From assembly GCA_964551995.1 (NCBI GenBank), contig CAZKFD010000011.1, forward strand, positions 43,374 to 107,373: a DNA stretch of 64,000 bases, in the 5' to 3' direction. Position 1 is the stretch's first letter. The number at the start of each line of letters is the position of its first letter. The notes beneath the pieces were generated by a model. It searched no databases. It had not been told where the DNA came from and saw only the letters and a list, made by a program, of their open reading frames with translations. The translations under genes and the position numbers were made by a program. The stretch is from an uncultured Eubacteriales bacterium (GTDB lineage: Bacteria; Acidobacteriota; Aminicenantia; Aminicenantales; Saccharicenantaceae). Positions 29,717 through 56,914 of this stretch are shown one piece after another.

Positions 29717-29926
29717 GAGCCCGGTGAGACGCCTGAGCGCGCCGGGGGGCCCACGGCCATTGAAGTTCGGCGCGAGAAGCGATATGTTGAGTCTCCTCCG
29801 CCGGCCAGGGGCCGGAGGCCCGAGGATGAGGCCGATTTCGGGCGTCCTCGGTCCCGGCGGGACGCCGGGCGGATGGAGCCGCCCCCGGGCGGACGATGAC
29901 GGATAAAAAAGAGGAGGCCAGCCGTG

Positions 29927-32200
29927 ATGAGAAAACGTTTCGTCCTGATCCTTCTCGTCGTATTGATGGCGGGACTCGGCGTGCCGCGCGTCGGCGCGGC
30001 CCCGGACAAGCCTGCGGACCCGATCTTGACGATCGACCGCATCTTCGCCTCGCGGGAATTCATCCCCGAGCGCTTCGGCCCGGCCCGCTGGATGAAGGAC
30101 GGAGAATCCTACACGACGCTCGAACCGAGCGCGGCGGCGAAGGGCGGACGGGACCTCGTCCTCCACGACGCCAAGACCGGGAAGCGGGATGTCCTTGTCT
30201 CCGCCGCCCGGCTCGTCCCCCCCGGCGCGTCTGAGCCGCTGTCCATCGAGAACTATGACTGGTCTCCCGACGGCAAGGTCCTGATCATCTTCTCGAACTC
30301 CAAGCGCGTCTGGCGCCAGAACACGCGCGGCGACTACTGGACCTTCGACCTCCGCTCGGGCCGACTCCACAAGCTCGGAGCGGAGTTCGAGGCGTCGACC
30401 CTCATGTTCGCCAAGCTCTCGCCGGACGGGCGGCTGGCGGCCTACGTCGTCCAGCATAATATCTATGACGAAGAGCTCGCGACGGGCTTGGTCCGGCAGC
30501 TCACGTTCGACGGCGACGCGGACACGGTCAACGGGACGTCCGACTGGGTCAACGAGGAGGAGCTCGACATCCGCGACGGGTTCCGCTGGAGCCCCGACAG
30601 CCAGTCCATCGCCTTCTGGCAGTTCAACACGCGCGGCGTCGGCCTCTTTTCGATGATCAACAACACGGATGCCGCGTACCCCGAGATCATCAGTTTCACG
30701 TACCCCGAGGCCGGGACCACGAACTCGGCGGTCCGGGTGGGCGTCGTCTCCGCCGGCGGGTCCGCGCCCGTCTGGATGAAGGCCCCCGGCGACCCCCGGA
30801 ACAATTATATCCCGAGGCTCGAGTGGGCCGGGAACTCCCGGGAGGTCATCTTCCAACAGCTCAACCGCCTGCAGAACACGGACAGGGTCTTCATCGGAGA
30901 GGCCGCGACCGGCGACGTGCGGCCGATCTTCACGGACAGGGACGAAGCCTGGGTCGACATCATGCCCGAGTTCATCTGGCTGGCCGGCGGAGAAAGCCTT
31001 CTCTGGTTGAGCGAGAGGGACGGCTGGAGACACGTTTACGCCGTGCCCCGCGCCGAAGGGGACATCAAGTTGCTGACGCCGGGCGACTACGATGTCGTAA
31101 GCATCGACGGCCTGGATGAAAGGGGGGGCCGGCTCTATATCACGGCGTCGCCCGATGACGGCACGAAGCGCTTCATCTACTGCGTCCGGCTGGACGGCCG
31201 GGGAAAGCCGGAGCGCGTCGGCCCGGCGAACCAAACGGGCGTCCACCGCATAGACGTCTCCCCTTCGGGCCGCTGGGCATTCCATACCTGGTCGAGTCTG
31301 GATACCCCTCCCGAGACCGAACTCGTACGCTTTCCCGGGGGGGAGAGCGTCCGCGTTCTCGCCGCCGATAAGGAGCTCCGGGCCAAGGTGGACGCGCTCA
31401 AGCGGAACAGGGTCGAGTTCTTCAAGCTCGCGATCGGCGGCGGCGTCCGGGTGGACGGCTGGCGCATCCTGCCGCCGGATTTCGATCCGGCCAAAAGGTA
31501 CCCGCTGTTCGTCTATGTCTACGGGGAGCCGGCCGGCCAGACCGTCCAGGACGGCTGGGGAGGGAACACCTACCTCTGGCATCTGATGCTTGCCCAGCGG
31601 GGATACATCATCGCCAGCTTCGACAACCACGGGACGCCGGCGCCGCGCGGCCGGGCTTGGCGCAAGAGCATCTACCGGCAGGTCGGCATCCTCGCCTCGG
31701 CGGACCAGGCCGCGGCGGCCCGGGCGGCCATCGCCGCTTGGCCGTTCGTCGATCCCGATCGGGTCGGGATCTGGGGCTGGAGCGGGGGCGGCTCGATGAC
31801 CCTCAACGCCATGTTCCGCTACCCCGGCCTCTACAAGACGGGGATCTCCGTCGCCGCCGTGCCGGACATGCGGCTCTACGATACGATCTACCAGGAACGC
31901 TATATGGGACTCCCGCAGGAGAACGAGGAGGGGTACCGCGACGGTTCGCCGATCACTTTCGCGAAGCAGCTTGAGGGGCGGCTCCTGATCGTTCACGGCA
32001 CGGGCGACGACAACGTCCATTACCAGGGCTTCGAGAGGCTGATCAACGAGCTTGTGGCCCATATCAAGCCGTTCACGATGATGTCCTATCCTAACCGCAC
32101 CCACGGGATCTTCGAAGGCCAGGGCACAACGCGCCACCTTTACAATCTGTTTCTATGGTTTCTGGGCGAGAACCTGCCGCCGGGAGCCAGGGCGCATTGA
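29927..32200 (+). CDS. S9B family dipeptidyl-peptidase IV-like serine peptidase, secreted
   Basis: GAGGAGG is 9 nt upstream of the ATG at 29927 (the track's 29924 is a GTG). Signal peptide MRKRFVLILLVVLMAGLGVP. DPP4 beta-propeller region, then alpha/beta-hydrolase domain with GWSGGGSM (nucleophile Ser), and a C-terminal Asp/His. Confidence 0.9.
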   Translation: MRKRFVLILLVVLMAGLGVPRVGAAPDKPADPILTIDRIFASREFIPERFGPARWMKDGESYTTLEPSAAAKGGRDLVLHDAKTGKRDVLVSAARLVPPGASEPLSIENYDWSPDGKVLIIFSNSKRVWRQNTRGDYWTFDLRSGRLHKLGAEFEASTLMFAKLSPDGRLAAYVVQHNIYDEELATGLVRQLTFDGDADTVNGTSDWVNEEELDIRDGFRWSPDSQSIAFWQFNTRGVGLFSMINNTDAAYPEIISFTYPEAGTTNSAVRVGVVSAGGSAPVWMKAPGDPRNNYIPRLEWAGNSREVIFQQLNRLQNTDRVFIGEAATGDVRPIFTDRDEAWVDIMPEFIWLAGGESLLWLSERDGWRHVYAVPRAEGDIKLLTPGDYDVVSIDGLDERGGRLYITASPDDGTKRFIYCVRLDGRGKPERVGPANQTGVHRIDVSPSGRWAFHTWSSLDTPPETELVRFPGGESVRVLAADKELRAKVDALKRNRVEFFKLAIGGGVRVDGWRILPPDFDPAKRYPLFVYVYGEPAGQTVQDGWGGNTYLWHLMLAQRGYIIASFDNHGTPAPRGRAWRKSIYRQVGILASADQAAAARAAIAAWPFVDPDRVGIWGWSGGGSMTLNAMFRYPGLYKTGISVAAVPDMRLYDTIYQERYMGLPQENEEGYRDGSPITFAKQLEGRLLIVHGTGDDNVHYQGFERLINELVAHIKPFTMMSYPNRTHGIFEGQGTTRHLYNLFLWFLGENLPPGARAH

Positions 32201-32619: not shown

Positions 32620-33387
32620 ATGGCAAAGTTATCCATGCGGAGGAACCTGGCGCTCGCGGCGACGGCCCTTCTCCTGATGCTGGCCGGGGGTCCGTTCCCG
32701 GCCCGCGGGCAGAACGCCGCATCCGACGAGGGCGTCCGTGCCCGGGTCGAACAGAAGTTCATGAAGGAGGGGCTCCTCGTCGGTAACGACATCCATGTGA
32801 CGGTCGAGAACCGGACCGTGACTCTGACCGGCAATGTCAGGACCCTGGCCCAGGCCGAGACGGCTCGGAAGGCCGCGGAGTCCGAGGCCAAAGGGTACAA
32901 AGTCATGAGCCGCCTCGAAGCGGCCGGGCCGGACCGGCCCATTCGGCAGATCGCCGAGAGCATCATGAGTGCTATCGATAAGTATCCCTCGTATTATATT
33001 TTCGATTCTGTCGGCGTCGGCATCGACGACGCGGGTGTGACCACTCTCAAGGGCTGGACGTATTATCCCTGGAGCGCCGAGGACTTCGTCAAGATCGCCG
33101 AGAACCAGCCGGGCGTCACGAAGATCAAGAACGAGATTACGCGGCTGATGAGCATGAGCTCCGACACGGCGCTACGCTTTCAGGTCGCCCGGCTGATCTA
33201 CAGGCGGCCGCTGGCCGCTTCTTTCGCCCGCATGAGCGGGCCGATCCACATCATCGTGAACAACAGCGTGGTCACGCTGGTGGGGACCGTCCGGAGTGAG
33301 AGCGACAGGAGCAGTTACGAACAGATGGTCCGCAGCAATACGGGGGCGCTTAACGTCATCAACGAGCTCCGGGTCAGCGGGAAGTGA
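32620..33387 (+). CDS. BON domain-containing secreted protein (OsmY-like, three BON repeats)
   Basis: Signal peptide MAKLSMRRNLALAATALLLMLAGGP. Repeated BON-like segments (VTVENRTVTLTGNV..., GVGIDDAGVTTLKGW..., IIVNNSVVTLVGTV...). Confidence 0.85.
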   Translation: MAKLSMRRNLALAATALLLMLAGGPFPARGQNAASDEGVRARVEQKFMKEGLLVGNDIHVTVENRTVTLTGNVRTLAQAETARKAAESEAKGYKVMSRLEAAGPDRPIRQIAESIMSAIDKYPSYYIFDSVGVGIDDAGVTTLKGWTYYPWSAEDFVKIAENQPGVTKIKNEITRLMSMSSDTALRFQVARLIYRRPLAASFARMSGPIHIIVNNSVVTLVGTVRSESDRSSYEQMVRSNTGALNVINELRVSGK

Positions 33388-33484: not shown

Positions 33485-34057
33485 ATGAAGAAACCGGGCT
33501 ATCTCAGGCAGTATATCGGCGACAAGGACGTCGGCGCCCTGCATCCGAGCTCTCACTTTCTCGTCCGGCGGCTCATCCGGTGCCTGCGTCCCGGGTCCAT
33601 CGGGACCCTGGTCGAGTTCGGTCCGGGGCCAGGCGTTTCGACCCGCCCGATCCTGGAGGTCATCCCCGAGTCGGCCCGCTACGTCGCCATCGAGAAGAAC
33701 CCCGCCTTCCTGGCGGCGCTGAGGTCGGAGATCACGGACCCCCGGCTCCTGGCCGTCGAGGGGGACGCCCGGTCGGCCGGCGACATCCTGTCGGGGCTGG
33801 GGATCGTGACCGCCGATGCCGTCATCGCCAGCATTCCGTTCTCGTTTTTATCCCGCGACGAGCGGGGGGCGATGCTCGACACGGTTTATTCGATCCTGGC
33901 CGACGACGGCGACTTCGTGATCTTCCACCAGTTCTCCCTCATGATGCGCTCGGAGTTGAAAGAGAGGTTTGCCGGCGTCCGGGTCCATTTCGAGCCGCGC
34001 AACGTCTTCCCCTGTTTCCTGCTCCACTGCAGAAAGCAGCCCCGGCGGGAGGTTTGA
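33485..34057 (+). CDS. small class I SAM-dependent methyltransferase
   Basis: MKKPGYLRQYIGDKDVGALHPS... with motif I LVEFGPGPGVST. 190 aa. An extended -10 (TGgTATACT at 33435..33443) lies upstream. The track's 33296 start adds 63 aa of non-coding sequence. Confidence 0.8.
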   Translation: MKKPGYLRQYIGDKDVGALHPSSHFLVRRLIRCLRPGSIGTLVEFGPGPGVSTRPILEVIPESARYVAIEKNPAFLAALRSEITDPRLLAVEGDARSAGDILSGLGIVTADAVIASIPFSFLSRDERGAMLDTVYSILADDGDFVIFHQFSLMMRSELKERFAGVRVHFEPRNVFPCFLLHCRKQPRREV

Positions 34058-34133
34058 ACGAATTTTTAGGAAAAGTTCAGTGGGGGAAGCCGGGAAGGGG
34101 TGATATCCTGCGGAGGAGCGAAAGGCCGACTCC

Positions 34134-34817
34134 TTGAACATCCTGGTTATAGAGGACGAAAAGAAAGTCGCTCAGGCCCTCAAGAAGGGGCTGACGGCCG
34201 AGCGCTACGAGGTCGAAGTCGCGCTAACGGGCGAAGAGGGCTTTCTCCTGGTCTGCTCAGAGACCTTCGACCTCATCATCCTGGACCTCATGTTGCCCGG
34301 CCGGGACGGCATGGAAATCCTTCGGGCGCTCCGCCAGAACAACGTTCGGACGCCCGTCCTGATCCTGACGGCCAGAGACGCCGTCGGTGACAAGATCCTC
34401 GGCCTGGACCTGGGGGCGGACGATTACCTCATCAAGCCTTTTGCCTTTCCCGAGCTGACGGCCAGGATCCGGGCCCTGCTGAGGCGGGGCCGCGGCGAGC
34501 CGCCGACGAAGCTGGGCCTCGCCGACCTCGAAATGGACCTCCTCGAGCGGACGGTCCTGCGCGCCAAGCAGGTCATCTCGCTGACGGTCAAGGAATTCGA
34601 GCTGCTCGAGTTCCTCCTCCGCAATCAGGGGCATGTCGTCACGCGGGAGATGCTGGCCCGGGACGTCTGGAAGGAAACAATGCGGGCGACCCCGCTGGAT
34701 AACGTGATCGATGTCCACATCGGCCGGCTGCGCAAGAAAATCGACGAGCCGTTCCCCCGGAGGCTGCTCCACACCGTGCGGGGGGTCGGGTTCATCCTTT
34801 CGGAGAAAGCATCGTGA
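34134..34817 (+). CDS. OmpR-family response regulator
   Basis: Receiver domain (MNILVIEDE...DLIILDLMLPGRDG...LTARD) plus a winged-helix trans_reg_C domain (LTVKEFELLEFLLRNQGHVVTRE). Confidence 0.9.
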   Translation: MNILVIEDEKKVAQALKKGLTAERYEVEVALTGEEGFLLVCSETFDLIILDLMLPGRDGMEILRALRQNNVRTPVLILTARDAVGDKILGLDLGADDYLIKPFAFPELTARIRALLRRGRGEPPTKLGLADLEMDLLERTVLRAKQVISLTVKEFELLEFLLRNQGHVVTREMLARDVWKETMRATPLDNVIDVHIGRLRKKIDEPFPRRLLHTVRGVGFILSEKAS

Positions 34818-36172
34818 GCTTCCGTCCCTCGAGCGTGCGCGTCCGGCTGACCCTCTGGTATACCCTAATCCTGGCGGGCATCGTCGTCGTCTTTTCGCTC
34901 GTCGTCTTCTACTTCGTCAGGGCCAGCCTCTACCGTCAGCTTGACCGTCAGCTGGACGCGTATTTCCAGGAGATCTCCCAGGCCTCGTCCGAGGAGCCGG
35001 GCAAGATCCCCGACTTTGAAACCCAGGGTGCCACGGAGTTTTTTCAGCTCGTCAAAGGCGGAAAGCTCTTCTTCGAGACTCCGGCCTACGGGAGGTCCGG
35101 CCTGCCGGTCTTCGGCCCGTCGTCCGCCTCCGGCACCCGGACGCTCCGGTCCCCGGCCGGCGCCCGGTTCCGCTTGAAGACGGGGCCGGCCGCAGGGGAA
35201 GTTCGTCTCACGGTCGCCGTCGAAGCTGGGCCCGTGCGGACGGCTCTCCAAACGCTTGCCGTCATCCTCTTGCTCGTCCTCCCCGCCGCTCTCGTTCTGG
35301 CGGCTTTCGGGGGATATGTCATGGCCGGACGCCTCCTGAAACCCGTCGCTGGCCTGGCCGCCCGGGCTGACAAAATCTCGGCCGAGAACCTGTCGGCGCG
35401 GCTGCCGGTGGAAAATCCGCGCGACGAGTTCGGGCAGCTGGCAGGCGTCTTCAACCGCACCTTGTCCCGCCTGGAGGACTCCTTCGAGCGGCTGCGCCGC
35501 TTCACGGCCGACGCGTCCCATGAGCTGAGGACGCCCCTGACGATGATCCGGAGCGTCGGGGAAGTCGCGCTCGAGGAGGACCTGGACCCGGCCGCCTACC
35601 GTGACCGGATCGGCAGCATGCTTGAAGACGTCAGCCGGCTGACCCGCCTCGTCGACGACCTCCTGACGCTCACGCGGGGCGATTCCCGGGCTGTGGAGCT
35701 TCGGCGTCGTGAGGCCGATGTCGGCCGCCTGGTTGAACGAGCGGTTGAAGATATGCGCCCCCTGGCCGAGGAAAAAAACCAGAGCCTGATCCTGCCACCG
35801 GAAGGGCCGGCCGCGATTCTTGCGGACGAGGCGACGCTGAGGCTGGCGCTGGTCAACCTTTTGGACAATGCCATCAAATACACTCCCGAGGCGGGCGAGA
35901 TCACGGTCCGTTCCCGTGTCCGCGGAGACGAGGTCCTTATCGAAGTCGCGGACACGGGCCCCGGCATCCCACCCGGATACGGAGACCGGATATTCGACCG
36001 GTTTTACCGGGTCGAAAGGGGCCGGTCAAGTCCGTCCGGAGGAGCCGGGCTGGGCCTGTCCATCGCCAAGTGGGCGGTGGAAGCGAACGGCGGGCGGATT
36101 GAATGGGAATCCCGGGAGGGAGAAGGAACCACCTTCCGCCTCGTCTTTCCCGTTATTCCCAAGAGAACCTGA
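34814..36172 (+). CDS. sensor histidine kinase (2 TM, HAMP, HisKA, HATPase_c)
   Basis: GTG start overlaps the response-regulator stop by 4 nt. H-box FTADASHELRTPLT, N-box LVNLLDNAIKYT, G-boxes DTGPGIP and GGAGLGLSI. Confidence 0.9.
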   Translation: MSFRPSSVRVRLTLWYTLILAGIVVVFSLVVFYFVRASLYRQLDRQLDAYFQEISQASSEEPGKIPDFETQGATEFFQLVKGGKLFFETPAYGRSGLPVFGPSSASGTRTLRSPAGARFRLKTGPAAGEVRLTVAVEAGPVRTALQTLAVILLLVLPAALVLAAFGGYVMAGRLLKPVAGLAARADKISAENLSARLPVENPRDEFGQLAGVFNRTLSRLEDSFERLRRFTADASHELRTPLTMIRSVGEVALEEDLDPAAYRDRIGSMLEDVSRLTRLVDDLLTLTRGDSRAVELRRREADVGRLVERAVEDMRPLAEEKNQSLILPPEGPAAILADEATLRLALVNLLDNAIKYTPEAGEITVRSRVRGDEVLIEVADTGPGIPPGYGDRIFDRFYRVERGRSSPSGGAGLGLSIAKWAVEANGGRIEWESREGEGTTFRLVFPVIPKRT

Positions 36173-36184
36173 GAGGAGGAAATC

Positions 36185-36559
36185 ATGCGTCGTTGCGCCG
36201 TCCCATCCGTCCTGGCGGGTGCGTTCGTCTTCGTTCTGTCGTTGGCGGCGCCGTCCCCATCTGCCGGCCGGCAGGGCCACGAACGCGGAACTGGAGGGGA
36301 GACGCATATGCCTCCCGCCGTGGCCCGGGCGGTCGAGGCCAACTGCGGTCGCAACGGTCAATCAGGTCGAGAAATCCGAGGTCCGGGCCGAAATCCGCAA
36401 GGCAGGCAAAAAGGGCACCATCGCCAAGCTCGTTCCCCCGAAGCATGTCTATGAGGCGGAACTGGTCAAGGGAGAGCGCAGGGGTGAAGTTCAGGTGTCG
36501 CCCGACGGCAAGATTGTCGAAGGCGCCAAATGGGGTGCCGGGGATTTCCCAAGTCGGTA
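36185..36559 (+). pseudogene. small secreted PepSY-like protein, apparently frameshifted
   Basis: A strong RBS (GAGAGGAGGAAATC-ATG) and signal peptide (MRRCAVPSVLAGAFVFVLSLAAPSPSA) lie in one frame and stop at 36454. The PepSY-like body (PTAVATVNQVEKSEVRAEIRKAGKKGTIAKLVPPKHVYEAELVKGERRGEVQVSPDGKIVE) is in the +1 frame and ends at 36559. The junction falls between about 36270 and 36340, at a G4 run (36296..36299) or the CCCGGG run. Confidence 0.5.
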
Positions 36560-36630
36560 GCGCGGCAAGGAATAAGCGGATAGAATAGTGGGGACATAAA
36601 CGCTCGCGAGGAGTCCCGGAAGAGAGGTCC

Positions 36631-37887
36631 ATGGTCCCCGATGCCGCCGTTCCCGGAGTGACGCCGCCCGCCGTTGCCAGGAGATCTGCCGCGGCCGGTT
36701 ATTTCGTGCCTGCCGTTCTGGCCATCTGCCTGCTGTTTTCGATCGTGATGGCCATCCGGAAGCCCATCCCCCACGGCCACCAGTATGAGCTGGCTGTTTT
36801 TCTGTATGCAAACTTGATCTTTGTTTGGTTCCTCTATGCGGTCCGGCCGGCGTGGATCTTCCGGAAAGCGCTCCTCATCGGCATCCTCGCGATCGGACTC
36901 GTCTTCGGCGCTTGGGGTCTGGCCCGGATGGACCCGCACCCGGAAGTCGTTTCCGTATACGGCTCCGTCTTCGAGGCGCTCAAGAACGGCCAGAACCCCT
37001 ATACGTGTGGAACGATCTTCCATTGGGCTGAGTTCCGCCGCGTCGTCTACGGGAATTTCAATTACATGCCGATGGAAATCTACCCCTATTATGCGGCCCG
37101 GCTCATTGCCGGCCGGTGGAACCTTGCCGTGCTGACCATCGCCATCCTACTCTTCCAGGCGATCGCGTGTCTCGTCCTTGTCCGGACGTTTCCGAAGATC
37201 AGGCTGGCCTATCTCTGGCCCCTCTTCCCGTTGTTCATCTTTGGCGAGTTCCGGACGAACTCGGCCGTGACGCTCCTCATGGCGGCCCTGATCCTCTGGG
37301 CCATCAAAAAGGAGCGCGACATGCCCGGCAAAGGCTACCGCTATCTCGTTGCCGTCCTGTTCGGGATCGGGCTGACGACCAAGTTCCTGATCATCCCCTT
37401 CTTCGCGGCCTACTATTGGAACAAGTTCGACGCGAAGAGGCTCCGTTCGCTCTTCGACATCGCCGTCGAGGCCGGCATCGGCTTGGCGACGGCGCTCCTC
37501 ATCATCGTGCCCTACGGCGTGAAGGCCGTGGTGAAGAGCACCGTCCTCTTTAACCTCGTCCTGAAGGACCGGGACGCGGAGACGACCTTTTTTCCGAACG
37601 TCCTGTCGGGGGCCTTCAGTTGGGCCGGACTCTCGGCGTGGTATCCCTACATCGCCCTGGCCGTCTTCGCCGCCGCAATTTTGGTCGCGCCCAGGCTCAA
37701 TGTCTTCTCGGCCATGCTGGCCGCGACTTTCGCTTTCTTGATCGCCTCGCCCACGCCGAGATCGCAGTTCCTGAGCACTGTCATCTACCTGGCCGTTGCC
37801 GGGATCTATATGAACGCGGAGCGAATGGGGACATTGCCCGCGAAGGTTTGGAGGGCCGGATGCGCCGCAGAGGCCGGCCCAGCCTGA
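36631..37887 (+). CDS. GT-C fold integral-membrane glycosyltransferase, DUF2029/PimE-like (paralog 1)
   Basis: 418 aa with about 10 predicted TM helices by hydrophobicity. An N-terminal loop with conserved acidic/aromatic residues follows TM1-2 (FEALKNGQNPYTCGTIFHWAEF). Confidence 0.75.
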   Translation: MVPDAAVPGVTPPAVARRSAAAGYFVPAVLAICLLFSIVMAIRKPIPHGHQYELAVFLYANLIFVWFLYAVRPAWIFRKALLIGILAIGLVFGAWGLARMDPHPEVVSVYGSVFEALKNGQNPYTCGTIFHWAEFRRVVYGNFNYMPMEIYPYYAARLIAGRWNLAVLTIAILLFQAIACLVLVRTFPKIRLAYLWPLFPLFIFGEFRTNSAVTLLMAALILWAIKKERDMPGKGYRYLVAVLFGIGLTTKFLIIPFFAAYYWNKFDAKRLRSLFDIAVEAGIGLATALLIIVPYGVKAVVKSTVLFNLVLKDRDAETTFFPNVLSGAFSWAGLSAWYPYIALAVFAAAILVAPRLNVFSAMLAATFAFLIASPTPRSQFLSTVIYLAVAGIYMNAERMGTLPAKVWRAGCAAEAGPA

Positions 37888-38810
37888 GGGACCGTGGCGC
37901 GGAGACGGCCTCGTCCGTATGGAAGGCCGGCGGAAAACCACGGAGGGGCGTGAGAAAGAATATCGCCGGGGGGCCGGACGCGCCGCGGGTCGCAGATCTC
38001 GAGACCGTCGTTTCCTTTTACACCGTCGCCGACGAGAAAAGCCGGCTGGTCACGGGCCTGGGCCGCGTCGAATTCGCCCGGACCAAGGACATCGTCAAAA
38101 GATACCTGCCGCCCCCGCCCCGCGTGCTCCTCGACGTCGGAGGGGCCGTCGGCCGCTACTCCTGCTGGCTGGCCAAGGAAGGTTATGAGGTGCACCTCTT
38201 CGATCCCGTGCCGGCCCTCGTGGATGAGGCCCGGAAGGCCTCCCTGGAACAGCCGGAAGCCCCGGTCGCAAGTCTTCACGTCGGCGATGCCCGGGCTCTG
38301 GATTTTCCCGACGCGACGGCGGACGCCGTCCTCATGTTCGGACCGCTTTACCATCTCACGAGCGCCGGCGACAGGCACAGGGCGCTCCGGGAGGCCCACC
38401 GGGTCATGAAGCCGGGCGGATACCTTTTCGCCGCCGGCATCTCGAGGTTCGCCTCGGCTCTCGAGGCGGTCATCAACGGCTTTCTCGATGACGGAGATTT
38501 CTTCGGGATCGTGCTCCGGGATCTCCGCGACGGACAGCACCGGAACGACACGGCGAACCTGACGTATTTCACGGACGCTTATTTTCACCGCCCTGGGGAA
38601 CTGAGGCGGGAAATCCAGGAGGCGGGGTTCGCCCCGCTGGATTTTGTCATGGTCGACCCGTTCGCCTACTCTTTCAAGAACATCGACAAGTATTGGGAGG
38701 ATCCCGTCCGGCGGGAACGGTTGATGGATATCCTCCGGAGGCTGGAAAGCGAGCCGGCCCTCATGGGGGCCGGGCCTCATCTGATGTGTGTGGCTTACAA
38801 AGCCCGGTGA
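37860..38810 (+). CDS. class I SAM-dependent methyltransferase
   Basis: Motif I VLLDVGGAVGRYSCWLAKEG, motif II-like FDPVP, and post-I acidic residues (DAVLMFGPLYHL). ATG at 37860 has GGAGGG upstream and overlaps the preceding gene by 28 nt. The start may be further downstream. Confidence 0.75.
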   Translation: MRRRGRPSLRDRGAETASSVWKAGGKPRRGVRKNIAGGPDAPRVADLETVVSFYTVADEKSRLVTGLGRVEFARTKDIVKRYLPPPPRVLLDVGGAVGRYSCWLAKEGYEVHLFDPVPALVDEARKASLEQPEAPVASLHVGDARALDFPDATADAVLMFGPLYHLTSAGDRHRALREAHRVMKPGGYLFAAGISRFASALEAVINGFLDDGDFFGIVLRDLRDGQHRNDTANLTYFTDAYFHRPGELRREIQEAGFAPLDFVMVDPFAYSFKNIDKYWEDPVRRERLMDILRRLESEPALMGAGPHLMCVAYKAR

Positions 38811-38873
38811 CCCGCCGTCCGCGGTCAGGAAGGATGGAGTCCGGAGAGGAGGGACGGCTGTGAAGTTGACAGG

Positions 38874-40274
38874 ATGGCCCACGGCGTGACCGCGTCGGCT
38901 CCCTTTTCCGGGCAGTCTCCTCTCGACAGAGGCCGGGAACAGCTCCCCCCGCTGGTTGTCCTCTATTTCATCGTCCTGGCCCTCGTGTTGCTGCTCACGC
39001 ACGGCCACTTCACGACCGGGGGGCTGCTCATCACGACCCTGGCCTTTCTGGCCTATCTCGCCTCTCCGTGGCGGGCGGGACGAAAACCGGACCGTCCGTG
39101 GCTGACCCTGGAAACGGTGTTCTGCGTCCTCTGGCTGGCCTTTTCGGCCGCCCTGATGATCCGCAACGGGCTCATGTACCCCCAGATGAACCTATGGTTC
39201 GTCCTCCTCAGGACCGCTCTGGCCCTGAACTTCGTCTGCGCGGCCGCCACCGCCGTCCTGCTGTTCTCGAGCGGCAAAATGCCGCGGGCCGCGAGGGTCC
39301 TGCTCCCCGCCGCGCTCGTCCTCGTGGCCTCCTGCTTTGTCCTGACCCTGAAAGCGTCGCCCGCGCCCCATATCGATGTCTTCACGATCTGCTCCAAGGC
39401 CGTAGATTTGCTCCGCGCCGGCCACAATCCCTACGACTTCCTTTACGCGGACATTTACGGGGGGAAATACACCTACCACCCCCGGCTCATGTATTGGCCC
39501 GTCGTAACCTACATGATCACGCTCGGCAAGCTGCTCGCGGGAGACGTCCGGTTTGGCTATGTGCTCGCCCAGTTCGCGGCGGCCGCCGGCCTGTGCCTCC
39601 TGGGCCGCCGCCGTGGATGGAGTCTCGAGAAGACCTTTCTGGCCGTCCTGGTCTGGTTCACTTTCCCCGTCTCTTTTTTCGTCCTGGAACAGTCCTGGGT
39701 GGAGGGGCTCCTCATGCCCGCGCTGGTCTTCTTTGTCTATTTCACGGAACGGCGGCAATGGGCGGCCGCGGCGGTGATGGCCGGGCTGGCGTGCGCGACG
39801 AAGCAATATATGATCTTCTTTGCGGTTTTTTCGTTCGTGTATGTCTGGAGGAAAGCAGGCCGGGGCAAGGCCTTCGGATACGCCGGCATCGCCTCCCTCA
39901 CGACGATGGCGACCATGGTCCCTTTTCTGGTCTGGAACTGGCGCGTCCTTCTGGACCGTACCGTCTTCGAGATCCTGCGTTACGACATCCGGACGGAATC
40001 GCTGTCCTGGATCGCCTTCTCGATCAACCGGCTGCGCGTTCCGTTCAACGCTTCGCTCTCTTTGGCGCTGACGGTCCTGCTGAGCGTCCCGGCCCTGGCG
40101 GTGATCCTCCGAAGGGGAGAGGTCCGGCCGGCCGACCTGATGTTTACCCAGGCCTCCGTCTTTTCCGCGGTTTTTCTCTTCGGCAACCAGGCCCTGTGCA
40201 ATTATTACTATTTCCTGAGCTTCCTCGTCTTCCTCCACCTCGTTCTCGTGGACGGAACCGGGAGTGAAGCGTAA
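38874..40274 (+). CDS. GT-C fold integral-membrane glycosyltransferase, DUF2029/PimE-like (paralog 2)
   Basis: 466 aa, multi-pass. The loop CSKAVDLLRAGHNPYDFLYADIYG is equivalent to paralog 1's FEALKNGQNPYTCG. Confidence 0.75.
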   Translation: MAHGVTASAPFSGQSPLDRGREQLPPLVVLYFIVLALVLLLTHGHFTTGGLLITTLAFLAYLASPWRAGRKPDRPWLTLETVFCVLWLAFSAALMIRNGLMYPQMNLWFVLLRTALALNFVCAAATAVLLFSSGKMPRAARVLLPAALVLVASCFVLTLKASPAPHIDVFTICSKAVDLLRAGHNPYDFLYADIYGGKYTYHPRLMYWPVVTYMITLGKLLAGDVRFGYVLAQFAAAAGLCLLGRRRGWSLEKTFLAVLVWFTFPVSFFVLEQSWVEGLLMPALVFFVYFTERRQWAAAAVMAGLACATKQYMIFFAVFSFVYVWRKAGRGKAFGYAGIASLTTMATMVPFLVWNWRVLLDRTVFEILRYDIRTESLSWIAFSINRLRVPFNASLSLALTVLLSVPALAVILRRGEVRPADLMFTQASVFSAVFLFGNQALCNYYYFLSFLVFLHLVLVDGTGSEA

Positions 40275-40299
40275 AATCGAACAGGAGGTAAAAAAAGAG

Positions 40300-41334
40300 A
40301 TGAAAACGTTTCGTCTCGGCTTGGCCGTTCTCTTAGCTGTGGCTATGGCGGGTTCTGCGCCGGTCCGGGCCCAGGACACGGGCGGCTACCGCCTCCTCAA
40401 GACATATACGCTCGGCGGGGAGGGCTTCTGGGACTACATGGCCTTGGATGCCGGAGCGCGCCTCCTCTATGTGACGCACGGCACCGCCGTCGAGATCCTG
40501 AACGTCGACACGGGCGTCAAGGGCGCGCCGATCACCGGCCTCAAGGGCATTCACGGTGTGGCCTTCGCCCCGGACAGGAACCGGGGTTACATTTCCAACG
40601 GAGGCGGAGACTGCGTGACCGTCTTCGACCTCAAGACGCATCAGGTTATCGTGGAAGTGCCGACCACGGGAAAAAATCCCGACGCCATCCTGTATGACCC
40701 GTTTTCGGGGCGCGTCTTCACTTTCAACGGGCGGAGCGGCAATGCCACGGCCATCGACGCTTCGACGGACAAGGCCGTCGGGACGGTCGACATCGGCGGC
40801 AAGCCCGAGTTCGCGGCCACGGACGGCGCGGGCACGATCTTCGTCAACGTCGAGGACAAGAGCGAGATCGTGGGTTTCGGCGCCAGGTCCCTCCAGGTCA
40901 TGAAAAGATGGTCGATCGCGCCCGGAGAAGGCCCGAGCGGGCTGGCCATCGACCCCGAGCACAAGCGCCTGTTCAGCGTCTGCGATAAGCTCATGGTCGT
41001 GTCGGATTTCGAGAGCGGTAAGGTCGTCGCCACGGTCCCGATCGGCAACGGCCCGGACGCGGTCCGGTACGACGCGGGCACGGGGCTCGTCTTCTCCTCC
41101 AACGGGGAAGGGACGCTGACCGTCGTCAAGCAGGATTCCGCAGACACGTACGAGGTCCTCGAGACGGTGAAGACGGCTCGCGGCGCCCGGACCATGGCCC
41201 TGGATCCCGAGACGCACCACGTCTTCGTCGTGACCGCGGACTTCGGCCCGGCCCCGGCGCCAACCAAAGACCACCCGAGGCCCCGCCCGACGGTCGTTCC
41301 GGGCTCGTTCAGGGTGCTCGAGTTCGGCAGATAA
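40300..41334 (+). CDS. secreted YVTN-family beta-propeller repeat protein
   Basis: AGGAGGT is 9 nt upstream of the ATG. Signal peptide MKTFRLGLAVLLAVAMAGSAPVRAQD. Repeated about 40-aa units have the G-x-x-P-x-G-hydrophobic-A-x-D pattern (GIHGVAFAPD, GKNPDAILYDP, GGKPEFAATDG, GEGPSGLAIDP, GNGPDAVRYD). Confidence 0.85.
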   Translation: MKTFRLGLAVLLAVAMAGSAPVRAQDTGGYRLLKTYTLGGEGFWDYMALDAGARLLYVTHGTAVEILNVDTGVKGAPITGLKGIHGVAFAPDRNRGYISNGGGDCVTVFDLKTHQVIVEVPTTGKNPDAILYDPFSGRVFTFNGRSGNATAIDASTDKAVGTVDIGGKPEFAATDGAGTIFVNVEDKSEIVGFGARSLQVMKRWSIAPGEGPSGLAIDPEHKRLFSVCDKLMVVSDFESGKVVATVPIGNGPDAVRYDAGTGLVFSSNGEGTLTVVKQDSADTYEVLETVKTARGARTMALDPETHHVFVVTADFGPAPAPTKDHPRPRPTVVPGSFRVLEFGR

Positions 41335-41398: not shown

Positions 41399-44300
41399 TC
41401 ACTCCGTCGCGCGGCGGCGGACCATCAGATAATAGAGCGTCGGCGTGGCGATGAGGGAGAGCAGGACCGAGATGCAGAGAGCGCCGATGACCGCCACGGC
41501 CAGGGGCTTCAACATGTCGGCGCCCGAGCCGACGCCGTAGGCCAGGGGCAGCATCCCGAGCGCGGCGGCCAGCGACGTCATCAGGACGGGACGGAGCCTG
41601 CGGAGCCCCGAGCGCACGACGGCCTCGGCCAGATTCAGGCCTTCGGCGCGGAGCTCCTTGACGAAATCTAGCATCAGGATGCCGTTCTTGGCGACGATGC
41701 CGATGCCGATGATGACCCCCAGCAGGGAGACGATGTTCAGCGACGTCCCCGTGATCCAGAGGGCAAGGACCGTTCCGAAGAGAGCCAGAACGGCGCCGAA
41801 CATGATGGCCACGGGCTCGTAAAAGGACCCGAACTCGAGGAGCAGCACGGTGAAGACCAGGAAGATGGCCATGCCCAGGACCATCATCAGATTGCGGAAC
41901 GACTCCTGCTGCTGCTCGTAGGTTCCTCCGTACTCGATCGCTCCCGGCGGCAGGGTCGGGTCCTTGCCGAGCGTCGCGCGGATTTCCGCCATGGCGCTTC
42001 CCATGTCGCGGCCTTCGAGGCGCGCCGAGACGGCCACGTCCTGACGGAAGCCGTCGCGCCGCAGCTCGAGCTGGCCGGGCTCCTCGACGACGTCGACGAC
42101 CTGGGAGAGCTGGACCAGCTGCCCGTCGGCGGTCCTCAGCGGGAGATGGCGGAGCTTCTCCACGCGGTCGATGTCGGAGGGCTCGGCCTTGACGCGGACG
42201 GCGACGACCCGGTCCCCTTCGAGTACTGTGGAGGCGGTCTCGCCGATCATCGCCGCGTTGACGGCCGAGGCAATGTCGTTGGCGGTCAGGCCGAACCGCT
42301 CGGCGTCGACATAGCACACCCGGAAGCTGATGGCGGGGCCGCAGTAGACCAGGCCGTTGAAGACGTCGACGACGCCCCTGATCTTGTCCAGTCGTTCCGC
42401 GATCTGGGGCGCCTTCTCCTTCAGATAGGCCGTGTCGGTGGAGAAGAGCTTGACCTCGATCGGCTGGGGCGCGTACATCAGGTCGCCGATGAGGTCGCTT
42501 AGGATGCCGGGGAATTCCCAGATGACGTCGGGCAGGGCGGCGTTGAGCCTGTGGCGCAGCTCGGTCAGGACCTCTTCGGTCGAGCGCTTGCGGTCGGGGC
42601 GCAGCTTCAGCAGGAAGTCGCCGTTGTTCGGTTCGGTGATGAAGAGGCCCAGCTGGGCGCCGGTGCGCCGGGAGTAGCTCTCAAGCTCCGGGACCGACCG
42701 GATGATGTCTTCGGCGTACTTGAGCTGGCGGTCGGTCTCGGCAAGGCTCGTCCCTGGCGGAGTGAGGTAGTCGATGACGAAGCCGCCCTCATCCATCGGC
42801 GGCAGGAACTCGCTTTCCAGGCTCTTATAGATGAAGGCCGAGAGGAAAAGGACGGCGGCGCAGGCGGCGATCGTCGGCCCGCCGTGCCGCAGGGCCGTCC
42901 GTACGCCTTTTTCGTAGATCCCTGTGACGCGCCGCAGCAAGCGGCCGCCCTGTTCCTTCGAAACCTCTCCGCCCGCCGGCTCACCTGGCTTCAGCAGCCA
43001 GGCGGCCAGGGACGGCGTCAGGGTCCCGGCCAGGGCCAGTGAGGTCAGCAGGGCGACGACCATGGTCATGGCCAGGGCGCGGAAGAAGACCCCGGGGATG
43101 CCCGTCAGGAAGGCCAGCGGGATGAAGACGACCACGGGGGTCAGGGTCGAGCCGATGAGGGGACGGAAGATCTCGCCGAGGCCCTCCCGGATGGCCGCCA
43201 GGGGACCGAGCCCGGCCGTCCGCTTGGTGTGGATGGCTTCGACGACGACGATGGCGTCGTCGATGACGAGACCGATGGCGGCGGCGATCCCGCCCAGGGT
43301 CATCAGGTTGAACGACATCCCGGCCGCCTTGATGGAGATCAGCGTGACGAGGACGGTGACGGGGATGACGAGGATGGCCACAAACGTCGTCCTCCAGCTC
43401 TTGAGGAAAAAGTACAGGATCAGGACGGACAGGATGAGCCCGAAGATGATGGCCTCCCAGACGCTGTGGACCGAAGCGCGGACGAGCAGGGACTGATCAT
43501 AAAAGAACGCCAGCCTCAGGTCGGGCGGCAACTCGTTCTTCAGGATTTTCAGCTCCTCCCGGAGGCGCCGGGCGATGTCGAGGGTGCTCCCGTCCGGCTG
43601 GCTGTAGATGTTGACGAGCACGGCCACTTTGCCGTCGGCGGTGACGATATTGAAGACCGGCTCGGGGCCCCGCACGACCCGCGCGAAATCGCGGACGAGG
43701 ACCGGGTGCTTGCCGGAGACCGTCACCGGGAAGTTCTCGATGTCCCGGATCGAGTGCACGCGGCCGTCGACCACGGCCAGATAGAGCATACGGTTCTCTT
43801 CGTGGAGTCCCGTCGACGCGACGAGGTTGTTCTTGTTGAGCGCGTCCGTGACTTCGGACAGGGTGAGGCCGGCCGCCTGGAGGCGGAGCGGGTCGACGAC
43901 GATGTGGTATTCGGGCGTGCGGCCGCCCACGAGGTCGGCGCGGGCGACGCCCGGGATCTGCAGGAACCGCGGCTTGAGCTGGTAGCGGGCGATCTCCCAG
44001 AGATCGATCAGGTTGCGCTTGGGGCTGGTCAGGCTGATGCCGATGATGGGGAAGTTCGAGAAGGTCACCCGGTAGACCTGGGCCTCGGCCGTGGCGGGGA
44101 GAGAGGCGCGGATCTGGGACAGCCGGCCGAGGACGTAGAGCTCCGACCGGATCATGTCGACCTTCCAGTTGAAGAAGATGTTGACCTCCGCCGAACCGCG
44201 CCCCGTGGCCGAACGGATCGTCGTCACCCCAGGAATGTCTTTCATGCTCTCTTCGATCGGCCGGGTGATGGTCGCCATCATCTCGTCGGCTGGCATCACT

Positions 44301-44476
44301 CCGTTGTCGACGAGAATGACGACGCGGGGGAAATTCGTCTGCGGGAAGACCGACGACGGGATGGTCAGGGCCGAGTAGACGCCGCCCAGGCAGAGGGCGA
44401 TGCTGATGAAGACGATGGGCAAAGCGTGACGCGTCGCGAACCGGCCGACGGCGGAATCTTTGGCCATGAACGTCAC
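41399..44476 (-). CDS. RND family efflux permease (CzcA/CusA-like, HME subgroup likely)
   Basis: 1025 aa with 12 TM helices and two large periplasmic loops. Typical AcrB/CzcA blocks are present. GTG start overlaps the upstream stop as GTGA. Confidence 0.9.
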   Translation of the reverse strand: MTFMAKDSAVGRFATRHALPIVFISIALCLGGVYSALTIPSSVFPQTNFPRVVILVDNGVMPADEMMATITRPIEESMKDIPGVTTIRSATGRGSAEVNIFFNWKVDMIRSELYVLGRLSQIRASLPATAEAQVYRVTFSNFPIIGISLTSPKRNLIDLWEIARYQLKPRFLQIPGVARADLVGGRTPEYHIVVDPLRLQAAGLTLSEVTDALNKNNLVASTGLHEENRMLYLAVVDGRVHSIRDIENFPVTVSGKHPVLVRDFARVVRGPEPVFNIVTADGKVAVLVNIYSQPDGSTLDIARRLREELKILKNELPPDLRLAFFYDQSLLVRASVHSVWEAIIFGLILSVLILYFFLKSWRTTFVAILVIPVTVLVTLISIKAAGMSFNLMTLGGIAAAIGLVIDDAIVVVEAIHTKRTAGLGPLAAIREGLGEIFRPLIGSTLTPVVVFIPLAFLTGIPGVFFRALAMTMVVALLTSLALAGTLTPSLAAWLLKPGEPAGGEVSKEQGGRLLRRVTGIYEKGVRTALRHGGPTIAACAAVLFLSAFIYKSLESEFLPPMDEGGFVIDYLTPPGTSLAETDRQLKYAEDIIRSVPELESYSRRTGAQLGLFITEPNNGDFLLKLRPDRKRSTEEVLTELRHRLNAALPDVIWEFPGILSDLIGDLMYAPQPIEVKLFSTDTAYLKEKAPQIAERLDKIRGVVDVFNGLVYCGPAISFRVCYVDAERFGLTANDIASAVNAAMIGETASTVLEGDRVVAVRVKAEPSDIDRVEKLRHLPLRTADGQLVQLSQVVDVVEEPGQLELRRDGFRQDVAVSARLEGRDMGSAMAEIRATLGKDPTLPPGAIEYGGTYEQQQESFRNLMMVLGMAIFLVFTVLLLEFGSFYEPVAIMFGAVLALFGTVLALWITGTSLNIVSLLGVIIGIGIVAKNGILMLDFVKELRAEGLNLAEAVVRSGLRRLRPVLMTSLAAALGMLPLAYGVGSGADMLKPLAVAVIGALCISVLLSLIATPTLYYLMVRRRATE

Positions 44477-45546
44477 TTGTCCCCGATGATGTGGATCTTC
44501 GTCTCCCCGGTGATGTTGTAGGCGTCCGTGGTGACGATGACCAGGCCCTCCTTGAGCCCTTCGCCCTCGACCTCGGCCAGGCCGGCGTCGCGGAGGCCGG
44601 CCTTGACGGGCCTGGGGATGGCCTTGTCGCCTTCGACGACCATCAGCACGGTCCCGCCGGCGGGGCTGGGAACGACGCTCTCTTCGGGGACGGCGAGGAC
44701 GTCGCGGCGCTCCTCCGAGACGATCCTGACGCTCAGGAACTGGCCAGGCTTGAATTGCGCCCTCACCGGCAGGGACGTTCGGACGAGCACCGTATCGGTC
44801 TTCGGGTCGATGTCCTTGCCGACGAGTATCAACGTTCCGTATCCCTGGACCCCGGGGCCGAAATCGACCGGCTGCCCGGTTTTGAGCGGGCCTGCGTCGC
44901 GGCTCGGGATCTGGGCCGTGAGCACGAGGCGGCTGAAGGCTATGACCTCGGCCAGGACCGCGCTCGGGTCGACGGTCTGGCCGATGCGGGCGTTGATCCG
45001 GACCACCGTCCCGGAAAGAGGCGCTTTGATCTCGAGATAGGACAAGTCTGTCCGTGCCGCGGCGAGGTCGTTCCGGGCCGCCTGGAGGGCGAGAGCTGCT
45101 TCCTGGACGGCCTTCTCCGAGGTCCCGCCGGCCGGGAGCAGTTTCTTCTGCCGTTCGTAGGTCTTTTCGGCGAAATCCAGCGCCTTTTCGGCCTTGGCCA
45201 CGGCGACTTCGGCCAAGCGCGTGTCGAGGCGGAAGAGGATTTCGCCGCGTTCGACGCGCTGCCCCTCCGTGCAGCGGATCTCGGTCAGGATGCCGCCCAG
45301 CGGAAACGACAGGTCGGCTCCCGCCGCGGGCCGCCCCTCGGACGGCGGCTCGGGCTCGACGGTTCCGTAGGCCGTAACGTAGTTCCGGAGAGTCGCCCGG
45401 GTGATCTTCCCGACATGAACGGCCACGTCGGTGACGACTTCCTCTTCCTCGCCGGCCTTGTGCCCCAGGCCCTTGATGAGGACGAGAACGGCCGCCGCGG
45501 CGACCGCCAGAACGATCAACGCGGTTATGGCCCTGCGTTTATTCAT
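44473..45546 (-). CDS. RND efflux membrane fusion protein (HlyD/CzcB family)
   Basis: N-terminal TM anchor, coiled-coil hairpin (VAVAKAEKALDFAEKTYERQKKLL...), then lipoyl and beta-barrel domains. Confidence 0.9.
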   Translation of the reverse strand: MNKRRAITALIVLAVAAAAVLVLIKGLGHKAGEEEEVVTDVAVHVGKITRATLRNYVTAYGTVEPEPPSEGRPAAGADLSFPLGGILTEIRCTEGQRVERGEILFRLDTRLAEVAVAKAEKALDFAEKTYERQKKLLPAGGTSEKAVQEAALALQAARNDLAAARTDLSYLEIKAPLSGTVVRINARIGQTVDPSAVLAEVIAFSRLVLTAQIPSRDAGPLKTGQPVDFGPGVQGYGTLILVGKDIDPKTDTVLVRTSLPVRAQFKPGQFLSVRIVSEERRDVLAVPEESVVPSPAGGTVLMVVEGDKAIPRPVKAGLRDAGLAEVEGEGLKEGLVIVTTDAYNITGETKIHIIGDK

Positions 45547-47001: not shown

Positions 47002-47240
47002 CGCGCCGCCCGTCCCCCGCAGACGACGGGACGGCCCGGAATCCTCCGGATCCGAATATCCGCTATAGGGACGACGCGAAACGCGGTTTCCTTCCCGAAG
47101 TTCCCGGTTTAAGAGGTTTCTGATCATGAGGTTGTCAGGAACGGTATTATCATTCCCGGGCGGGGAGGCTTTCAACTGAATTTTCCGTCAGATAGGAACC
47201 TGTTTTTGGCCCGGCGGCCAGGGATCTTTCTATGTCGCGG

Positions 47241-50199: not shown

Positions 50200-50270
50200 G
50201 ATTTTGGCGCTTTTCTCAAGCATAGAAAATTTATACTGTCGGGCCGCTGTCATGTCAAGGCGGCCGGAAA

Positions 50271-50299
50271 TTGATTCTGGTGCCGGGTTCACTTATAAT
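50271..50299 (+). promoter_or_regulatory. strong sigma70-like promoter for the gamma-glutamyl cyclotransferase-like gene
   Basis: TTGATT at 50271..50276, a 17-nt spacer, then TATAAT at 50294..50299. It is 40 nt upstream of the ATG at 50340. Confidence 0.45.
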
Positions 50300-54086: not shown

Positions 54087-54147
54087 TCTCTTCCCCTCTT
54101 GTCTAAAAACGATATCTTCCGAACATGATCTCGGGAGACGACTCGTG

Positions 54148-54510: not shown

Positions 54511-54727
54511 CTTCGCCTCCCGCACGGATTCGCTCTCCATTCCTGTCGGTGACGTCTCGCGCCTCCACCGCTCCCTCGGTTCTCACCTCCCCAGATTTCC
54601 GCGCCCATCATACGCCGGAGCGCGTTACAGGCCGATTAAAATAAGATTAAAAAATTCTCATCTTTCGGCATCGACGGCCGGAGAGAGGCGAACCGGGCGG
54701 GGCGCCCGGCCGGAGACGAGCTGCCGG

Positions 54728-56209: not shown

Positions 56210-56210
56210 A

Positions 56211-56879: not shown

Positions 56880-56914
56880 CGGGAGCTTCTCCCCATACGG
56901 ATCGGCTGTTTGAT

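Follow-up and report, generated by a model that had tools for sequence, protein, structure and literature searches.

Genes for PepSY-domain proteins are found near two-component systems more than 60-fold more often than expected by chance (PMC12714742). The DbfQ protein of Vibrio cholerae binds the sensor domain of DbfS, and PA2658, encoded next to BqsS in Pseudomonas aeruginosa, has been predicted to do the same with BqsS (PMC12714742). Metal binding has been described for the PepSY proteins UipA and lanpepsy (PMC8963506, PMC9988556), and in Cupriavidus the mmf cluster, which also includes PepSY, is induced by Pb and Zn (PMC12029693). The P. aeruginosa regulator BqsR binds a direct repeat, TTAAG-N6-TTAAG, that overlaps the -35/RNA polymerase site, and its predicted regulon of about 100 genes includes the LPS-modification gene arnB, for which BqsR-dependent induction was seen; arnB heads an operon with the gene of the GT-C enzyme ArnT, and the other envelope functions of the regulon protect against cationic stress (PMC4358008). 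PepSY two-component modules (BqsPQRS, DbfQRS) and regulons that include the arn operon (BqsR, PmrA) are known kinds of system (PMC12714742, PMC4358008). Here we describe a locus on contig CAZKFD010000011.1 of an uncultured Aminicenantes bacterium, within a stretch of 64,000 nucleotides (positions 43,374 to 107,373 of the contig) that we analyzed as a whole and call the window. In this locus the genes for a response regulator (RR) and a histidine kinase (HK) are followed by a PepSY-like sequence, two genes for GT-C glycosyltransferases (GT-C1 and GT-C2) on either side of a methyltransferase gene (MTase), and a gene for a YVTN beta-propeller. We interpret it, with a probability of roughly 55%, as an envelope- or cation-stress locus of the BqsRS/DbfQRS/PmrAB kind that is coupled to RND efflux and carries accessory envelope-glycolipid cargo, and not as a dedicated glycosylation/methylation module. 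The initial annotation of this DNA did not recognize the architecture as a described one; in fact a PepSY protein with a two-component system, two-component control of a GT-C enzyme and a two-component system beside an RND pump are all known kinds, and it is for the combination of YVTN, RND and two-component genes that our literature search found no described system.

The comparison covered 61 genome loci around relatives of GT-C1, 80 metagenome loci around relatives of YVTN, and the contigs of the closest GT-C1, GT-C2 and MTase homologs, on which the window proteins were placed by tblastn. A presence/absence matrix was then built from the window and 15 related Aminicenantes loci (about 16 in all). 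This matrix revealed a backbone made of a BON-domain protein, a small OlsG/PmtA-like methyltransferase, RR, HK, the PepSY-like protein and YVTN, together with a convergent pump operon encoding an RND permease, a membrane fusion protein (MFP) and an outer membrane protein (OMP), with 54-88% protein identity to the window. Zero to four optional genes occupy two slots, one between PepSY and YVTN and the other between YVTN and the pump, and wherever present they follow the same order: DUF5916, GT-C1, MTase, DsrE, GT-C2. None of them is found in L077; DUF5916 is found in L079 and L082, MTase and DsrE in L160, GT-C1 and MTase in L071 as well as in L070 and L074 (the contigs of these last two end early), DUF5916, GT-C1, MTase and DsrE in L155, DsrE and GT-C2 in L068, and GT-C1, MTase and GT-C2 in the window. 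Four further loci (L014, L020, L046 and L078) carry a GT-C1-family paralog after YVTN, without MTase. GT-C2 was found only in the window and L068 among the compared loci, and a GT-C gene stands beside YVTN in 10 of the approximately 16, drawn from three lineages (clade A, clade B and GT-C2). The seven genes that had been joined into one glycosylation/methylation module by the initial annotation do not stay together as a module in related loci; what is co-conserved is the sensor, the propeller and the pump. The convergent RND efflux operon, absent from that annotation, is the real conserved partner. In L078, MprF-like genes (1212-4020; lysyl-phosphatidylglycerol synthase transmembrane and C-terminal parts, judged from sequence) are divergent from YVTN, and the backbone is in a rearranged form, with BON and OMP in divergent orientation.

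The pump is a tripartite RND system: the permease matches ACR_tran with 770 bits, the MFP matches HlyD_D23 and also RND_mfp (175 bits, cut-off 94.9), and the OMP matches OEP. Its orthologs share 69-88% identity with the window proteins. The permease scored 512 bits against the CusA/CzcA model TIGR00914, below the cut-off of 701 for heavy-metal efflux permeases, and 630 bits against the generic multidrug model RND_permease_2, which is higher but also under that model's own cut-off. In L014 the permease orthologue (11214-14276) is matched in three separate pieces, a sign of frameshifts that would reflect either an assembly error in this metagenome-assembled genome or a decaying pump gene.

The RR gene and the pump operon are preceded by related sequence elements. 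Alignment of six loci upstream of RR identified a direct repeat, (T/G)T(C/T/A)AG-N6-TTCAG, followed about 19 nt downstream by TGATAT; in the window it reads TTTAG-GAAAAG-TTCAG (34065-34080), again followed by TGATAT, and the distance between the 3' end of the repeat and the start of RR is exactly 51 nt in 7 out of 7 loci. This TTCAG-N6-TTCAG-like repeat is the predicted site through which the RR would regulate its own gene. It resembles the BqsR site TTAAG-N6-TTAAG, which is likewise a direct repeat of a 5-mer with a 6-nt spacer placed over the -35 element. The efflux promoter, ...GGAAAATTCAGTTGAAA-N17-GATAAT, is conserved in eight loci (the exact 17-mer lies at 47170-47186, minus strand), with a TTCAG half-site next to or overlapping its -35 element, and a TTCAG box is found upstream of the OMP gene in 7 out of 7 loci. 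When the box GAAAANTTCAGTKG was searched with up to two mismatches in the 64-kb window, it was found only at 34070-34083 and in the efflux promoter. In L046, where a B12-binding radical-SAM gene (6120-7685) lies between HK and PepSY, a full second repeat with its -10 element (TTCAG-AAAGAG-TTCAG ... TGATAG) precedes PepSY. This duplicated promoter suggests that PepSY and the following genes must stay under control of the box.

We propose that this BqsRS/DbfRS/PmrAB-like system is transcribed from its own promoter with the TTCAG-N6-TTCAG repeat, and that RR, HK, the PepSY-like sequence, the cargo and YVTN probably form one transcript. On activation, the phosphorylated RR would bind the RR and pump promoters, and this binding would raise expression of the pump, of the periplasmic beta-propeller and of the operon cargo. 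The GT-C enzymes would most likely work at the periplasmic face, where a polyprenyl-phosphate donor would supply the hexose to be added to an envelope glycolipid, with an acceptor that is perhaps based on an inositol phospholipid. Stress would then induce efflux together with remodelling of surface glycolipids, following the logic by which BqsR and PmrA act on the arn operon and ArnT. In known systems a PepSY partner modulates the kinase; its counterpart here is inactivated.

The same mosaic could be read differently, with the GT-C and MTase genes as unrelated passengers that sit in permissive slots, use their own promoters and have no tie to the sensor or the pump. We consider this unlikely. 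It is favored by the diversity of the cargo, which comes from five unrelated families (DUF5916, GT-C, MTase, DsrE and a hydrolase), by the lack of a box in front of the cargo genes and by the presence of two GT-C1 paralog clades in different slots. However all cargo genes are co-oriented with gaps of 25-100 nt and terminator signals that do not exceed shuffle expectation, and their constant order resembles differential loss from one operon, not random insertion. Passengers would not explain either why the L046 promoter was duplicated after the radical-SAM insertion, keeping the downstream genes under the box, or why three GT-C lineages were recruited to one neighbourhood.

The receiver and winged-helix (Trans_reg_C) domains of the RR, and the HisKA and HATPase_c domains of the HK, all score above Pfam thresholds, in agreement with the OmpR-type system proposed from the first reading, and they place the pair in the OmpR/PhoB type. 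The best NCBIfam model for the RR is the heavy-metal regulator TIGR01387 (248.9 bits, cut-off 279.2), with PmrA at 205 bits. The HK scored 276.5 bits against the heavy-metal kinase model TIGR01386 (cut-off 292.55) in an alignment limited to residues 128-446, which leaves the sensor loop outside. This loop is predicted to be periplasmic, between two transmembrane segments, and its translation (34925-35260, residues ~37-150) contains no His, Cys or Met. Membership in the heavy-metal sensor two-component family, which takes both cut-offs and a matched sensor domain, was not reached, and the heavy-metal label suggested by these models does not appear secure. The locus does resemble CusRS-CusCFBA and CzcRS-CzcCBA in having a two-component system beside a tripartite RND pump, in the heavy-metal subfamily being the best NCBIfam match of its RR and HK, and in an MFP that matches CusB/CzcB-type domains. 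In contrast to these systems, all its heavy-metal models are under cut-off, its sensor domain has no relation to theirs and no soft-metal ligands, the generic multidrug model fits the permease better, and its genes are convergent instead of divergent. A Cus/Cop/Czc-type heavy-metal system was rejected on the scores below cut-off, the unmatched and ligand-free sensor loop and a permease that is not clearly of the heavy-metal class. The likeness to BqsRS/DbfRS described here is one of gene arrangement and box, again with a sensor loop here without His, Cys or Met.

A PepSY-type protein encoded upstream of the GT-C genes was part of the first description of this locus, but this gene is not intact. 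The PepSY-like sequence begins at ATG 36185 behind a good ribosome-binding site, and its signal peptide and first 54 residues share one frame (36185-36346). The following part (36345-36533) lies in the +1 frame and encodes equivalents of residues 117-179 of the 339-residue L046 orthologue, as determined by tblastn, and alignment of the DNA with L071 and L070 identified an internal deletion of 188 bp, which is not a multiple of three. Because the two halves are in different frames and separated by an out-of-frame deletion, this genome carries PepSY as a pseudogene. The window copy has no Pfam match, and public gene callers assign no gene to 36172-36631. Three independent assemblies have the same genes in this part as the window, a match at gene level, the deletion itself being read in the window copy. 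Intact orthologs are 191-339 residues long with two or four PepSY_like repeats, and the L014 orthologue clears PF11396 (47.5 bits, cut-off 28.3). We also considered that GT-C1, MTase and GT-C2 had arrived as one insertion that truncated PepSY, and rejected this, as the natural two-repeat PepSY of L071 ends at the same place and the cargo is mosaic. As in BqsPQRST/DbfQRS, the gene of a secreted PepSY-type protein neighbours those of an OmpR-family RR and an HK. The differences are that PepSY is here downstream of HK, belongs to PepSY_like (PF11396) with two to four repeats versus one small domain, and is a pseudogene, so that the window has no intact secreted PepSY protein beside its HK/RR pair; the operon here also adds YVTN and faces an RND pump. 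Loss of the PepSY-like partner may have altered signalling.

The MTase scored above cut-offs for Methyltransf_11 and Methyltransf_25 (63.7 bits for the latter), which makes it a class I S-adenosylmethionine-dependent methyltransferase; it reached no equivalog-level family, its best PDB matches are generic and it has no signal peptide. Its start was described as overlapping GT-C1, and this holds (28 nt) if translation begins at ATG 37860. Since most of its more than 7600 homologs are about 275 residues long, we favor the later GTG 37950, which leaves a gap of 62 nt. MTase and GT-C1 are adjacent in five loci (window, L070, L071, L074 and L155). An obligatory GT-C1/MTase pair was rejected, as L160 keeps MTase (82% identity) and DsrE without GT-C, and a role of the MTase in a methylated glycan would have adjacency as its sole support.

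These observations bear on the idea that all seven genes serve a single dedicated pathway: synthesis of a methylated glycolipid or glycoprotein would be switched on by the two-component system, GT-C1, MTase and GT-C2 would act sequentially, and YVTN and PepSY would serve as periplasmic scaffold or acceptor. We judge this quite improbable, even if the short gaps and common orientation, the five GT-C1/MTase adjacencies, the frequency of GT-C genes from three lineages beside YVTN and three distant YVTN loci followed by another GT-C-like protein all speak for it. L077 has RR, HK, PepSY, YVTN and the RND pump without GT-C or MTase, L160 has MTase without GT-C and the clade-B loci have GT-C without MTase. 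In addition the MTase lacks a signal peptide and has homologs of 70% and 58% identity in unrelated contexts (L157 and L159), PepSY is a pseudogene here, and 54 of the 61 GT-C1-family loci lie outside this operon.

The assignment of both membrane proteins to the GT-C type was confirmed at the level of the fold, the multi-pass fold of ALG3, PIG-M, PimE, ArnT and STT3. The narrower label given to them, DUF2029/PimE-like, also holds at this level, but in our hidden Markov model (HMM) check GT-C2 scored 22.9 bits (E 8.3e-5) against PF09594 (GT87/DUF2029), under the gathering threshold of 25, and GT-C1 had no Pfam (E<=0.01) or NCBIfam match. Two GT-C1-family orthologs likewise lack a PF09594 match. 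The two proteins had been called paralogs. BLASTP between them was marginal (25% identity over 309 residues, E 0.048), and profile-profile comparison was significant (98.5% probability, E 3e-15, 298 columns), which indicates that GT-C1 and GT-C2 are distant homologs by sequence. Their best structural matches are the lipid-acceptor enzymes ALG3, GPI mannosyltransferase I (GPI-MT-I, PIG-M, GT50) and PimE (GT87), and their nearest solved relatives take polyprenyl- or dolichyl-phosphate-mannose donors; the GT-C1 profile had no match among PDB sequences. An acidic residue in the first external loop is invariant in each family, E105 in 20 GT-C1 sequences and D168 in 16 GT-C2 and GT87-like sequences, and the two residues align to each other. 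Both proteins resemble PimE and PIG-M in their small GT-C fold and in having an acidic residue in this loop, a putative counterpart of the catalytic Asp of PimE or PIG-M, and GT-C2 further in its weak PF09594 match and its profile match to PIG-M; the PIG-M profile alignment starts after the E105/D168 position and does not reach the catalytic loop. They differ in that identity is 10-15%, the GT87 gathering threshold is not attained and the family of GT-C1 is a separate one, small, restricted to one lineage and without Pfam model.

This GT-C1 family comprises 98 clusters (50% identity) at E<=1e-3 among 1.84 billion representatives, nearly all from Aminicenantes and with several paralogs per genome. 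GT-C2 has three close homologs in 5.8 billion proteins. In a neighbor-joining tree, the GT-C genes before and after YVTN belong to different paralog clades, and the clade of window GT-C1 is sister to genes in an unrelated LysM-DUF4126 context. We then clustered the neighbours of the 61 GT-C1-family genome loci (L010-L056 among them). A GT2 gene lies directly upstream on the same strand in 16 of the 61, with best NCBIfam matches to AglJ, ArnC, PpgS and dolichyl-P-hexose transferase, that is, polyprenyl-P-sugar synthases. A CDP-alcohol phosphatidyltransferase gene occupies the same position in 11 of the 61, with best matches to archaetidylinositol-P and PIP synthases, and one locus has both. Downstream there is often a HAD-type hydrolase (9 loci) or a galactokinase (6 loci). 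The GT2 and CDP-alcohol phosphatidyltransferase neighbours, found beside GT-C1 paralogs as a further likeness to PimE and PIG-M, together with the likeness to GPI-MT-I and PimE themselves, suggest by analogy that the GT-C1 family glycosylates inositol phospholipids from polyprenyl-phosphate sugars. Compared with PmrAB (BasRS) and ArnT, the GT-C that adds 4-amino-4-deoxy-L-arabinose (L-Ara4N) to lipid A, the locus differs in not attaining the PmrA and ArnT family thresholds, in lacking ArnC or ArnB-type donor-synthesis genes in the window, in GT-C proteins that are nearer to ALG3, GPI-MT-I and PimE than to ArnT, and in GT-C genes that are optional. A bolder and doubtful extension would be that an Aminicenantes GT-C family without Pfam model builds, as its main function, inositol-phospholipid glycolipids like phosphatidylinositol mannosides or glycosylphosphatidylinositols from polyprenyl-phosphate sugars, and that two of its clades and a GT87-like lineage were repeatedly recruited into a BqsRS-like stress operon that drives an RND pump, with YVTN as periplasmic partner of the pump or glycolipid machinery. 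Efflux and an inducible remodelling of surface glycolipids would in that case be coupled in the cell.

The last gene of the run encodes, as proposed, a secreted YVTN beta-propeller (42.8 bits against TIGR02276, cut-off 27.85, with a signal peptide). Its best PDB sequence match is the YVTN surface-layer propeller 1L0Q of Methanosarcina (E 2.8e-21). Orthologs of 71-78% identity adjoin the RND operon in eleven loci (L014, L020, L046, L071, L077, L078, L079, L081, L082, L155 and L160), homologs of about 50% identity are again beside RND genes in L137, L147 and L148, and the order at the distant YVTN locus L115 is RR-HK-YVTN-PepSY...MFP-RND. In L096, L106 and L120, YVTN homologs are followed by a multi-pass protein of about 680 residues that looks, judged from sequence, like a PMT/ArnT-type GT-C. 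This is a further adjacency of YVTN and GT-C, with a different GT-C family. The propeller recalls the MmpL3-TtfA-MSMEG_5308 system, in which a seven-bladed beta-propeller is also genetically tied to an RND-superfamily transporter; the match of YVTN to the NCBIfam model of the MmpL3-TtfA stabilizer is very weak (17.5 bits, cut-off 600), the transporter of this locus is not MmpL but a tripartite RND of Gram-negative type, and the tie between propeller and pump is here one of gene neighbourhood. That the GT-C proteins are protein O-glycosyltransferases acting on the YVTN propeller or the PepSY protein is very unlikely: GT-C adjoins YVTN in most loci and the C-terminal tail of YVTN (...FGPAPAPTKDHPRPRPTVVPG) is Pro/Thr-rich, conserved and in part invariant, but in structure the GT-C proteins come closest to enzymes with lipid acceptors, the genes linked with GT-C1-family paralogs are PIP-synthase-like and GT2 genes rather than YVTN, and L077, L079, L081, L082 and L160 have YVTN without any GT-C.

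Several points weigh against the interpretation as a stress locus with glycolipid cargo. A search of the window for a box just ahead of GT-C1, MTase, GT-C2 and YVTN found none, and the other TTCAG-N6-TTCAG matches in the window lie outside the promoter regions of these genes. With no box there, two-component control of these genes would be exerted by read-through from the RR promoter. The control of the GT-C genes that the initial annotation postulated is nevertheless plausible through co-transcription, because these genes follow, with little space between them, an RR promoter that is conserved and probably autoregulated. Independent promoters could however fit into the 70-nt and 63-nt gaps; a scan for promoters and terminators gave nothing above shuffle expectation except the BON promoter, and terminator-like hairpins were at expectation. 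In the pump promoter the upstream half-site is degenerate (NTGAC), and this promoter and that of the RR disagree by about 3 nt in the spacing up to the -10 element. Both the co-transcription and the RR binding are predicted from sequence, and sequence does not fix the stimulus either, the heavy-metal HMM matches being under cut-off and missing the sensor loop. Loss of the PepSY partner may also mean that this genome carries a partly decayed system. Finally the donor and acceptor proposed for GT-C1 and GT-C2 are an extrapolation from other paralog clades, and the 64-kb window contains no polyprenyl-P-sugar synthase or PIP synthase.

The features of the locus are collected in Table 1. The run of seven co-directional, closely spaced genes seen at first is a real plus-strand run with short gaps, of which six genes are intact. 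RR and HK overlap by 4 nt, the PepSY-like open reading frame starts 12 nt past the HK end, 459 bp (36173-36631) separate HK from GT-C1, and the gap between GT-C2 and YVTN is 25 nt, with public gene calls starting YVTN at ATG 40300. The G+C content of the window is about 65%, and twelve window proteins match the 385-kb ENA contig k141_3465494 (uncultured Aminicenantes bacterium) by tblastn at 99.4-100% identity.

Table 1 Features of the locus and of its surroundings in the window
Feature	Position	Strand	Basis
RR promoter with direct repeat	34065-34106	+	alignment of six loci
OmpR/PhoB-family RR	34134-34817	+	Response_reg 99 bits, Trans_reg_C 85 bits
Sensor HK	34814-36172	+	HAMP, HisKA, HATPase_c (Pfam)
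PepSY-like repeat protein, secreted; pseudogene	36185-36560	+	tblastn frames, DNA alignment
GT-C1, GT-C-fold integral membrane glycosyltransferase, 418 residues; optional cargo	36631-37887	+	family without Pfam model
MTase, class I methyltransferase, cytoplasmic; optional cargo	37860-38810	+	Methyltransf_11 69.9 bits
GT-C2, GT-C-fold glycosyltransferase, 466 residues; rare optional cargo	38874-40274	+	divergent GT87/GT50 relative
YVTN beta-propeller, seven-bladed, secreted; backbone	40300-41334	+	TIGR02276, PDB 1L0Q
Tripartite efflux operon, convergent; backbone	41399-46969	-	ACR_tran, HlyD_D23, OEP
RND permease	41399-44476	-	ACR_tran
MFP	44473-45546	-	HlyD_D23
OMP	45539-46969	-	OEP
Efflux operon promoter	47143-47191	-	alignment of eight loci
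BON-domain (OsmY-like) secreted protein	32620-33387	+	Pfam BON 92 bits
Small class I methyltransferase, OlsG/PmtA-like, 190 residues; backbone	33485-34057	+	NCBIfam, below cut-offs
S9 prolyl-oligopeptidase/DPP-IV-type peptidase	29924-32200
S9 prolyl-oligopeptidase/DPP-IV-type peptidase	48160-50292
Second cluster, LPG_synthase_TM	51926-52903	+
Second cluster, GT4 glycosyltransferase	52881-54086	-
Second cluster, HK	54728-56209	-
Second cluster, RR	56211-56879	-
Second cluster, OEP	57893-59206	-
Second cluster, CusB-like MFP	59290-60321	-

Two backbone genes precede the RR. The BON gene has a promoter-like site with 11 out of 12 matching positions, and BON orthologs of 54-58% identity are present in L014, L046, L071, L077 and L078. 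The small methyltransferase scored 83.8 bits against OlsG and 44.8 bits against PmtA in NCBIfam, both far under cut-offs, and has orthologs of 64-79% identity in related loci; it may methylate a membrane-lipid head group. S9-type peptidase genes flank the locus, one on each side. A second envelope cluster (51926-60321) in the window contains an OmpR-type two-component system, whose HK and RR are 43% and 51% identical to the first HK and RR, together with an OEP and a CusB-like MFP, an LPG_synthase_TM protein and a GT4 glycosyltransferase.

Comparing about 16 loci told core and cargo apart and revealed a pseudogene that had been read as a gene from the raw sequence, a caution for annotation that a tidy run of co-directional genes is not the same as one pathway. 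The most interesting elements are the uncharacterized GT-C family and the flexible cargo slot. The family has PIP-synthase-like and polyprenyl-P-sugar-synthase-like genes as genomic partners, which point to inositol-lipid glycoconjugates outside the known groups. If our interpretation is true, a concrete regulon of two promoters with a BqsR-like box would be defined in a phylum without cultured model, and a stress operon would keep its core of sensor, propeller and pump while swapping envelope-modifying enzymes between close lineages.

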